This document shows positions 63,204 to 64,000 of a stretch of DNA of 64,000 bases, piece after piece. Numbering within the stretch: position 1 is the stretch's first letter; each line of letters begins with the position of its first letter. Origin of the DNA: a virus. Taxonomy: Duplodnaviria; Caudoviricetes. Below the pieces are notes generated by a model, which had not been told where the DNA came from, did no database searches, and saw only the letters and a list, made by a program, of their open reading frames with translations. A program made the position numbers and the translations under genes. The stretch lies in IMG/VR virus record IMGVR_UViG_2974632701_000001, positions 10,676 through 74,675 of that record. One strand, 5' to 3'.

Positions 63204-63377
63204 CGTAGCTGGGTGCTGCGGCATCTGAGGGCCGAACCGGGATAACTCTGTCTTCACCTCAGATCAAACCATACCCGCCCCGCTGCGCTCACCCGTAGCC
63301 CAGAGTCAGGCTCCTTCTCCTCACTCTACCCACACCTAACAGCTTGCGAACCAAATCAAGAAACATGCTTGGCATTG

Positions 63378-63397
63378 CAAGAGTTGCGAAGCAACTC
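63378..63397 (-). promoter_or_regulatory. N4 vRNAP-type hairpin promoter candidate (+ strand as template)
   Basis: C-AAGA-GTTGC-GAA-GCAAC matches the N4 P1 hairpin (GTTGC-GAA-GCAAC, from memory) with G at -8, purine at -11 and template C at +1 (63378). Confidence 0.5.
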
Positions 63398-63546
63398 GCA
63401 GCAATCTGCGTAGCAGGCCGAAGGCAGCCAAGTAGGTTTGTTGATGCAGGTGAGCACTTCGTACTCCAACTCACTTCGTGAGTCTGAGCAGTATAACCTA
63501 TAGCTCATAAACCACAGATATGAGTTATAGCTCATAGAGGATAACC

Positions 63547-63657
63547 ATGATGAAACCTTCAGTTTCTTCTTTGATGAACCAAATCAACAAATGGCGTGAG
63601 GGTGTCCTCAGAGAACTGGCAGCCAAGGAAATGGCCGAGGAACTCTTTAAGGATTGA
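63547..63657 (+). CDS. 36-aa peptide
   Basis: Not in ORF track. GAGG SD, MMKPSVSSLMNQINKWREGVLRELAAKEMAEELFKD*, amphipathic. Confidence 0.55.
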   Translation: MMKPSVSSLMNQINKWREGVLRELAAKEMAEELFKD

Positions 63658-63682
63658 TACATATATAAAATTTTGCATATGT
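63654..63682 (+). promoter_or_regulatory. possible sigma70-like promoter for the 63688 RNA
   Basis: TTGATA, 17-nt AT-rich spacer, ATATGT; a start 6 nt downstream would coincide with G63688. Confidence 0.35.
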
Positions 63683-63687
63683 GTCGA

Positions 63688-63800
63688 GGGGATGCTGGTG
63701 CGAGTAGTCGGTTCGAGTCCGACTAGTATGCTAATCGCTGCTAAGGATCGTGGGATCTAGGGACATAGGATTATGGGTTCAATTCCCATCATCTCCACCA
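63688..63800 (+). ncRNA. tmRNA/tRNA-Ala-like small RNA lacking an anticodon arm
   Basis: GGGGATG/CATCTCC acceptor with G3.U70, A73, CCA; T-arm ATGGG-TTCAATT-CCCAT; internal second T-loop hairpin TAGTCGG-TTCGAGT-CCGACTA. Confidence 0.65.
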
Positions 63801-64000
63801 AATTTTATAAAAATCGCAGTACAGAAAAACCTAATATTGTCGAGGGTGGGGGGTTTCTGTCTGGGCAGCTACACCTGCCAACCCACCCCCCCGGTCTAAT
63901 TACACACTGATTACACATGCCCCCCATATTTACTACACTCTCCACCTCCACCCATTACACTGCATACTACCCAGCCTCCGGCTGTCTTGGATCTTATCCC

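Follow-up and report, generated by a model that had tools for sequence, protein, structure and literature searches.

An anticodon-less, alanine-type tRNA-like element with tmRNA-like ends in an optional cassette of an N4-like roseophage

Introduction

The jakobid mitochondrial tmRNAs, which are reduced to a tRNA-like domain, and the stable, tRNA-like RNAs C and D of T4 are short molecules of alanine type or tRNA-like form that bear no message and adjoin tRNA genes. Acceptor/T minihelices that bear a G3.U70 pair are charged by AlaRS. In bacterial tmRNA (SsrA), the tRNA-like domain (TLD) is defined by a T stem-loop together with a reduced, stem-less D-loop, SmpB binds the region of the D-loop and the junction, and the known tags are 8-35 residues long (PMC3968760). 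Mycobacterium phage DS6A has been listed as encoding a TLD-only tmRNA (Hudson, Lau and Williams 2014, PMC4131195). According to the summary of Mao et al. (2009) given in PMC4131195, tmRNA is strongly inhibited by a similar TLD-only molecule, and titration of SmpB may be the cause.

Here we describe a tRNA-like element of this general kind in a 64-kb stretch of DNA (hereafter the window, meaning the whole stretch that was analysed), with which a complete virus record of 74,675 bp ends. The DNA comes from an N4-like roseophage that belongs to the Rhodovirinae, and its nearest record is that of Sulfitobacter phage EE36phi1, with ~83% identity across the region of the element. A first-pass annotation of the window, made from the letters of the sequence, had proposed a miniature tmRNA mimic at this locus.

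Results and discussion

The tRNA-like element occupies 113 nt (63688-63800) on the plus strand, to which its parts, its cassette and the conserved hairpin region described below are also assigned, and lies ~200 bp from the right end of the record. The 5' strand of its acceptor stem, GGGGATG (63688-63694), can be read from the sequence and from the Rfam alignment, and pairs at seven of seven positions with CATCTCC (63790-63796), with a G.U pair at 3-70 and pair probabilities of 0.87-0.92. The 3' segment (63790-63800), recovered in the same two ways, continues with the discriminator A73 (A63797) and an encoded CCA (63798-63800), and the full alanine identity set is present (G1-C72, G2-C71, G3.U70, G4-C69 and A73). 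The T-arm ATGGG/TTCAATT/CCCAT (63773-63789) has maximal posterior probability in both model alignments. None of the 12 acceptor-stem and T-arm pairs is broken, and the T-loop, A73 and CCA are intact as well.

Between these ends, the acceptor strand is followed by an unpaired D-loop analogue, CTGGTGCGAG (63695-63704), which is 10 nt long, contains GG and CGA like the D-loop of a TLD, ends in G and has no D-stem. Hairpin 1 (TAGTCGG/TTCGAGT/CCGACTA; 63705-63725) has a 7-bp stem, a 7-nt T-loop-like loop and pair probabilities of 0.90-1.0. Beyond it lie a small ORF, GCT AAT CGC TGC TAA (63730-63744), and hairpin 2 (GGATC/GTGG/GATCT; 63745-63758), with 5 bp, pair probabilities of 0.82-0.95 and a 4-nt loop that is no anticodon loop. 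The element therefore contains two 7-nt loops of the T-loop type, TTCGAGT in hairpin 1 and TTCAATT in the T-arm, and the two nucleotides ahead of its T-stem are TT. Its predicted fold is a four-way junction formed by the acceptor stem, the hairpin-1 arm, a hairpin-2 arm closed by AAUC/GAUU and the T-arm, while an extra arm closed by UAUG/CAUA is disfavoured by the energy model. The stability of the whole fold is not above that of shuffled sequences (z = -1.14). The first-pass annotation had described an alanine acceptor with G3.U70 and A73, a 7-bp acceptor stem, an encoded CCA and a canonical T-arm, with an unpaired D-loop stretch, a 7-bp TTCGAGT hairpin and the small ORF between them and no anticodon arm, and each of these parts lies where it had been placed.

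ARAGORN called neither a tRNA nor a tmRNA at the element, and Rfam at gathering thresholds returned only three tRNAs for the region, with no RF00005 match at the element itself. A tRNA (RF00005) cloverleaf was rejected, as the D-arm is missing and so is a properly spaced anticodon arm with its 7-nt loop; hairpin 1 has a 7-nt loop, yet its stem is 7 bp long and its spacing is wrong for an anticodon arm. An intron-containing or D-armless tRNA-Ser(CGA), read through the hairpin-1 loop, was also discarded on the grounds of the 7-bp stem, a 47-nt spacer, A73 with G3.U70 and the negative ARAGORN result. An attP fragment of ssrA was ruled out, since both acceptor strands are there.

The small ORF had been proposed to encode a four-codon A-N-R-C tag, which we treat as a product of chance. 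A GCN-initiated ORF of 3-12 codons arose in 71% of interior shuffles, and such an ORF together with a TAG at most 9 nt upstream arose in 14%. The tag codons overlap the predicted helices GCGA/U-UGC and AAUC/GAUU, and A-N-R-C plus the charged alanine would come to five residues, which is below the known range (PMC3968760). A second sequence, GCTGCTAA, had been likened, together with GCTAAT, to a collapsed tag; it encodes Ala-Ala-stop in no frame, and the GCT GCT frame continues with AAG. The element has neither an H2/P2 helix nor a pseudoknot, so there is nothing to bring a message to the decoding centre.

With relaxed thresholds, bacterial tmRNA (RF00023) is the best-matching Rfam family for the element. 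The match runs from end to end (63688-63800) with 31.4 bits and an E-value of 9.7e-11 in a 901-base search, a score below the gathering threshold of 47 bits. In this alignment, 62 nt of the element stand for 304 model positions, and thus the likeness to tmRNA is significant at the ends, with a middle that is not tmRNA. The term miniature tmRNA mimic consequently suits the two ends and does not extend to the 62-nt middle, in which a long P2 helix and pseudoknots are lacking. Permuted tmRNA (RF04321) gave a weak match (22.9 bits vs a threshold of 47), and no other tmRNA-type family, and no mitochondrial tmRNA model, was matched in the Rfam search at E <= 10. A permuted two-piece tmRNA, in which an acceptor piece with a terminal CCA precedes a coding piece that opens with the pairing GGGG strand, was rejected, because the RF04321 match stems from a second box copy, GAGGGTG, which is mispaired at 2-71, and because GAGGGTG also occurs in relatives without any T-arm. 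The 3'-terminal 26 nt of the element were found in identical form in the tmRNA genes of many unrelated bacteria in a scan of genome contigs, and are uninformative on its origin.

A blastn search against 50,697 phage records returned only generic T-arm matches. In IMG/VR, exact and degenerate scans with the 5' strand gave two chance matches in coding DNA, and the 21-mer of hairpin 1 (63705-63725) occurs nowhere else. Scans with interior 18-21-mers and with the box plus TLD found no match, and none of the seven loci from a metagenome scan has the interior of the element. No homologous sequence that would allow a covariation analysis of the interior was recovered.

Viral contigs commonly contain anticodon-less, alanine-type elements whose ends resemble those of tmRNA. 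When IMG/VR and metagenomes were scanned by pattern, 117 distinct sequences emerged in which the GGGG... acceptor stem is fully paired; of these, 87 (77-169 nt, all distinct) were not called as tRNA by ARAGORN. In the commonest type, which is 80-89 nt long, a 12-15-nt D-loop with a terminal CGAC is followed by one P2 hairpin of ~7 bp and by (G)GAC, after which come the T-arm, the acceptor strand and ACCA. Its consensus D-loop is TGGTTTCGAC; that of DS6A, whose element corresponds to JN698994 28478-28560 (L367:179-261), is TGGTGGTCGAC, and that of the contig L010 is TTGGTGCGCC. We aligned 15 elements of the commonest type with DS6A and found that the P2 helix has both-side changes at all seven pairs and a covariation score of 0.56, compared with 0.16 in shuffles and ~0.1 in slid controls. 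Acceptor pairing in this class is set by the scan filter and is not counted as evidence.

A covariance model built from the same 15 elements and DS6A (R1) ranks the window element first in the 64-kb window (30.6 bits, E 2.5e-5). The alignment takes in only the acceptor stem, T-arm and ACCA, with the P2 region skipped (local [58]), and it places the D-loop analogue, TGGTGCGAG, at low confidence, with 10 nt and a final G vs the 12-15 nt of the class. This score is not above the ordinary-tRNA range: the tRNA-Met of the window scores 23.9 bits and ordinary tRNAs elsewhere reach ~32 bits (range 24-32), while mini elements outside the training set score 42-77 bits. The two nucleotides ahead of the T-stem are AC in 71 of the 87 candidates and TT in the window element. 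In its alanine-accepting end the element agrees with the class, but its interior is its own and it is not a clean class member; it is a divergent variant of the phage mini-tmRNA kind.

Two mini-tmRNA-like subfamilies of intermediate size were also observed in viral contigs. One comprises L306:1146-1256, L355:6385-6495 and L094:9859-9967 (111/109 nt), and the other L279:173-305, L330:63-195, L320:5772-5905 and L362:3424-3546 (123-134 nt). Both have full TLD ends, score 52-60 bits with R1 and keep interior motifs, e.g. GATAACTGCCCA following GAGTAGC; they contain possible short messages, the frame of which is not conserved across members. The contig L021 (also L026) carries two anticodon-less GGGG...CTCCACCA elements of 91 nt (L021:3276-3366) and 73 nt (L021:1108-1180), which lie ~2 kb apart and adjoin tRNA-like matches.

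We propose that the element is an optional phage gene for an anticodon-less tRNA-like RNA that could be charged with alanine and compete for host SmpB and EF-Tu, a reading to which we give a probability of about 0.45. Its sequence anatomy, its tmRNA-like ends, the cassette polymorphism and the absence of a credible message are observed, and its charging, expression, processing, SmpB binding and effect on the host are inferred. The RNA would be excised from a longer early transcript, or initiated at the repeated box. RNase P would trim it at G63688 as it does a tRNA, and its 3' end would lie at the encoded CCA. Charging with alanine by host AlaRS would follow, and, given that minihelices with G3.U70 are charged, this step is likely irrespective of the interior. 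The charged RNA would then occupy factors that recognise the elbow of tmRNA or tRNA, above all SmpB and EF-Tu, and trans-translation would be damped or re-routed in the infected Rhodobacterales cell with no tag added; an alternative outcome of the same competition would be tag-less rescue. The phage encodes no SmpB gene, so any SmpB partner of the element would be that of the host. An RNA that decoys SmpB or AlaRS, as the first-pass annotation had suggested, is a possible reading. Competition for host SmpB/EF-Tu is the idea proposed for DS6A and is the best-supported one here, although the departures of the element in its D-loop and junction fall in the SmpB-bound region, which lowers our confidence in the SmpB model. 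A broader proposal, in which the element would found a distinct family of alanine-charged, cloverleaf-shaped, anticodon-less phage RNAs with two non-tRNA arms, one of them with a second T-loop, made right at the onset of N4-like infection and shutting down or re-routing trans-translation in hosts with a two-piece tmRNA, seems quite unlikely to us.

The description of the gene as optional rests on its genetic context. It is carried by an accessory cassette of 155 bp (63689-63843), which is present in some relatives and absent from others. The cassette is bounded by direct repeats of the 9-mer TGTCGAGGG, both read from the sequence; the left copy (63683-63691) contributes the acceptor-stem bases G1-G4, and the right copy lies at 63838-63846. 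This 9-mer has exactly two copies in the 74,675-bp genome, both flanking the cassette, and relatives have one copy of the box, always ahead of a conserved G-rich hairpin. Homology with EE36phi1 breaks off at 63639 and restarts at 63806. Dinoroseobacter phage R7L and phage RPP1 lack 63675-63833, as do two complete N4-like IMG/VR genomes (L128 and L129), and R1 found nothing longer than a tRNA in any of these or in EE36phi1. In a contig from run X2 that is 95-99% identical, 63688 is joined straight to 63844, and in a contig from run X4, 63681 is joined to 63844. In all, seven relatives lack the cassette.

The element is present in a roughly 94% identical relative, represented by a 267-nt contig from run X10 that covers 63577-63806, has 13 differences and lacks 19 nt immediately ahead of the box. 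X10 is a wastewater run labelled RNA-Seq that is possibly DNA, and the contig shows presence only. As this relative carries it too, the cassette cannot be put down to misassembly of a single record. In R7L (L002:1600-1700), the same slot holds a tandem AAATTTT...TGTCGAGGG box with copies ~60 bp apart and no tRNA-like gene between them, which indicates that the cassette site is prone to rearrangement. The present data fit both gain and loss of the cassette.

Such a site raises the possibility that the element is a non-functional by-product, namely a tRNA/tmRNA-like fragment or chimera that was captured at a recombination hot spot beside the unique box, is neutral and is easily lost via the 9-bp repeat. 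The restriction of the cassette to some close relatives, its deletion exactly between the repeats and the duplicated box of R7L are all consistent with this, as are an interior with no family match and unremarkable stability and a nested T-arm-like hairpin that suggests a patchwork origin. However, the acceptor stem and T-arm keep each of their 12 pairs together with an intact T-loop, A73 and CCA, a relative with ~6% differing positions (X10) has retained the cassette, and both acceptor strands rarely survive in decayed tRNA fragments. We consider a by-product unlikely.

Downstream of the cassette, a non-coding stretch (63842-63991) is kept across the Rhodovirinae (~77% with EE36phi1, R7L and RPP1). 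It consists of the G-rich hairpin, followed by repeated TTACAC-like words, with the TGTCGAGGG box always in front. The conserved G-rich hairpin region (GGGTGGGGGG ... CCCACCCCCCC; 63842-63893) lies 3' of the box in all relatives and outside the RNA. The whole stretch may be an early promoter, a leader or a genome-end element.

The element is preceded upstream by a nucleoside 2-deoxyribosyltransferase gene, by three genes for tRNAs (Pro, Met and Ser; ARAGORN and Rfam), by ~430 nt in which no ORF is convincing and then by a 36-codon ORF (63547-63657) that ends 30 nt before it. Hairpins with GNA triloops occur in the window at 63381-63434 (GAGTTGC-GAA-GCAACTC at 63381-63397, CTGC-GTA-GCAG and GCC-GAA-GGC) and have the shape of N4 virion-RNA-polymerase promoters. 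Their region is kept in RPP1 (63347-63454), and a separate 225-nt contig of run X10 spans 63272-63456. If these N4-type hairpins are early promoters, the RNA of the element would be among the first made. A consensus scan found no sigma-70 promoter ahead of the element. The words TATACT, ATATGT and TAATAT, which precede the box in different phages, are -10-like and, on what is only a reading, would start an RNA near G63688. The X10 contig lacks 19 nt before the box and carries the ORF end and the element together, and read-through therefore fits better than a promoter of the element's own.

Read-through of this kind would also suit a cis-acting RNase P or 3'-end punctuation signal that marks the end of the transcript of the 63547-63657 ORF and the start of the next. 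The element lies 30 nt past that ORF and just ahead of the conserved box and hairpin, its junction with the ORF end in X10 is compatible with such a role, and N4-type hairpins are found upstream (63381-63397 and nearby). Relatives with the same ORF and box nevertheless do without the element, and punctuation needs neither an alanine identity set nor an encoded CCA, which makes a cis-acting signal decidedly doubtful in our view.

The element could instead act as a decoy for other host tRNA-handling factors, among them enzymes that modify T-loops, CCA-related nucleases or tRNA-directed defence, to which it would present an alanine acceptor end as well as two T-loop hairpins. Its two T-loop-type 7-nt hairpin loops (TTCGAGT and TTCAATT) would be in keeping with this, and differently shaped phage tRNA-like RNAs share its ends (L007, L063 and L112). 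The role is purely inferred, though, with no defence or counter-defence gene linked to the element, and we regard it as very unlikely. Anticodon nucleases, which the first-pass annotation had counted among the possible targets, would not be addressed by an RNA with no anticodon loop, and that part of the proposal has no basis.

A working miniature tmRNA that resumes on GCU AAU CGC UGC UAA to append a short non-degron tag, as the UAG 3 nt upstream of the GCU codon and the tmRNA-like ends might suggest, is extremely improbable for an ORF that is at chance level, lies inside predicted helices and falls short of the known tags of 8-35 residues, in an RNA with no H2/P2 helix and no PK1.

Conclusion

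In conclusion, we favour an optional gene for an anticodon-less, alanine-chargeable RNA that may compete for host SmpB and EF-Tu. If the RNA is made and charged, an N4-like lytic phage would carry a swappable gene aimed at the ribosome-rescue/tRNA-handling machinery, and its presence or absence among close relatives offers a natural comparison for the role of the element.

Compared with bacterial tmRNA (SsrA), the element has a similar acceptor/T-arm half, with the alanine identity, encoded CCA and T stem-loop, and a stem-less D-loop. It differs in being about a third of the length, in having two short hairpins only, with no long H2/P2 helix and no pseudoknots, in having no tag of 8-35 residues and in scoring below the gathering threshold. 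The jakobid tmRNAs and the T4 RNAs C and D are like the element in kind, and no mitochondrial tmRNA model matched it at E <= 10.

The DS6A-type elements come closer, being likewise phage-encoded with a G3.U70 acceptor stem, a T-arm and a stem-less GG...CGA D-loop, and neither DS6A nor the window element has an anticodon arm or a credible tag. The window element is longer, however, with 113 nt vs about 80-90. Its D-loop of 10 nt ends in G and resembles TGGTGGTCGAC and TTGGTGCGCC but is shorter, and it has two hairpins and ~47 extra nt where the DS6A type has a single P2 hairpin and then (G)GAC and the T-arm.

Elements of 94-97 nt that begin with GGGGATGGG... are found in uncultured phages (L007:11301-11397, L063:6026-6121, L112:8438-8534 and L257:11435-11528) and have three internal hairpins. 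They share with the window element an identical acceptor stem, the lack of an anticodon, a multi-hairpin interior and similarly low scores with both models (RF00023 gives 32.1 bits for L007), and in L007 the T-loop and 3' end are also identical. Their interior sequences are unrelated to that of the window element, and L007 has its own consensus sigma-70 promoter (TTGACA-17-TATTAT), unlike the window element. If the RNA of the window element is made and charged, phage mini-tmRNAs would not be one family, but varied shapes built upon one alanine-accepting end.
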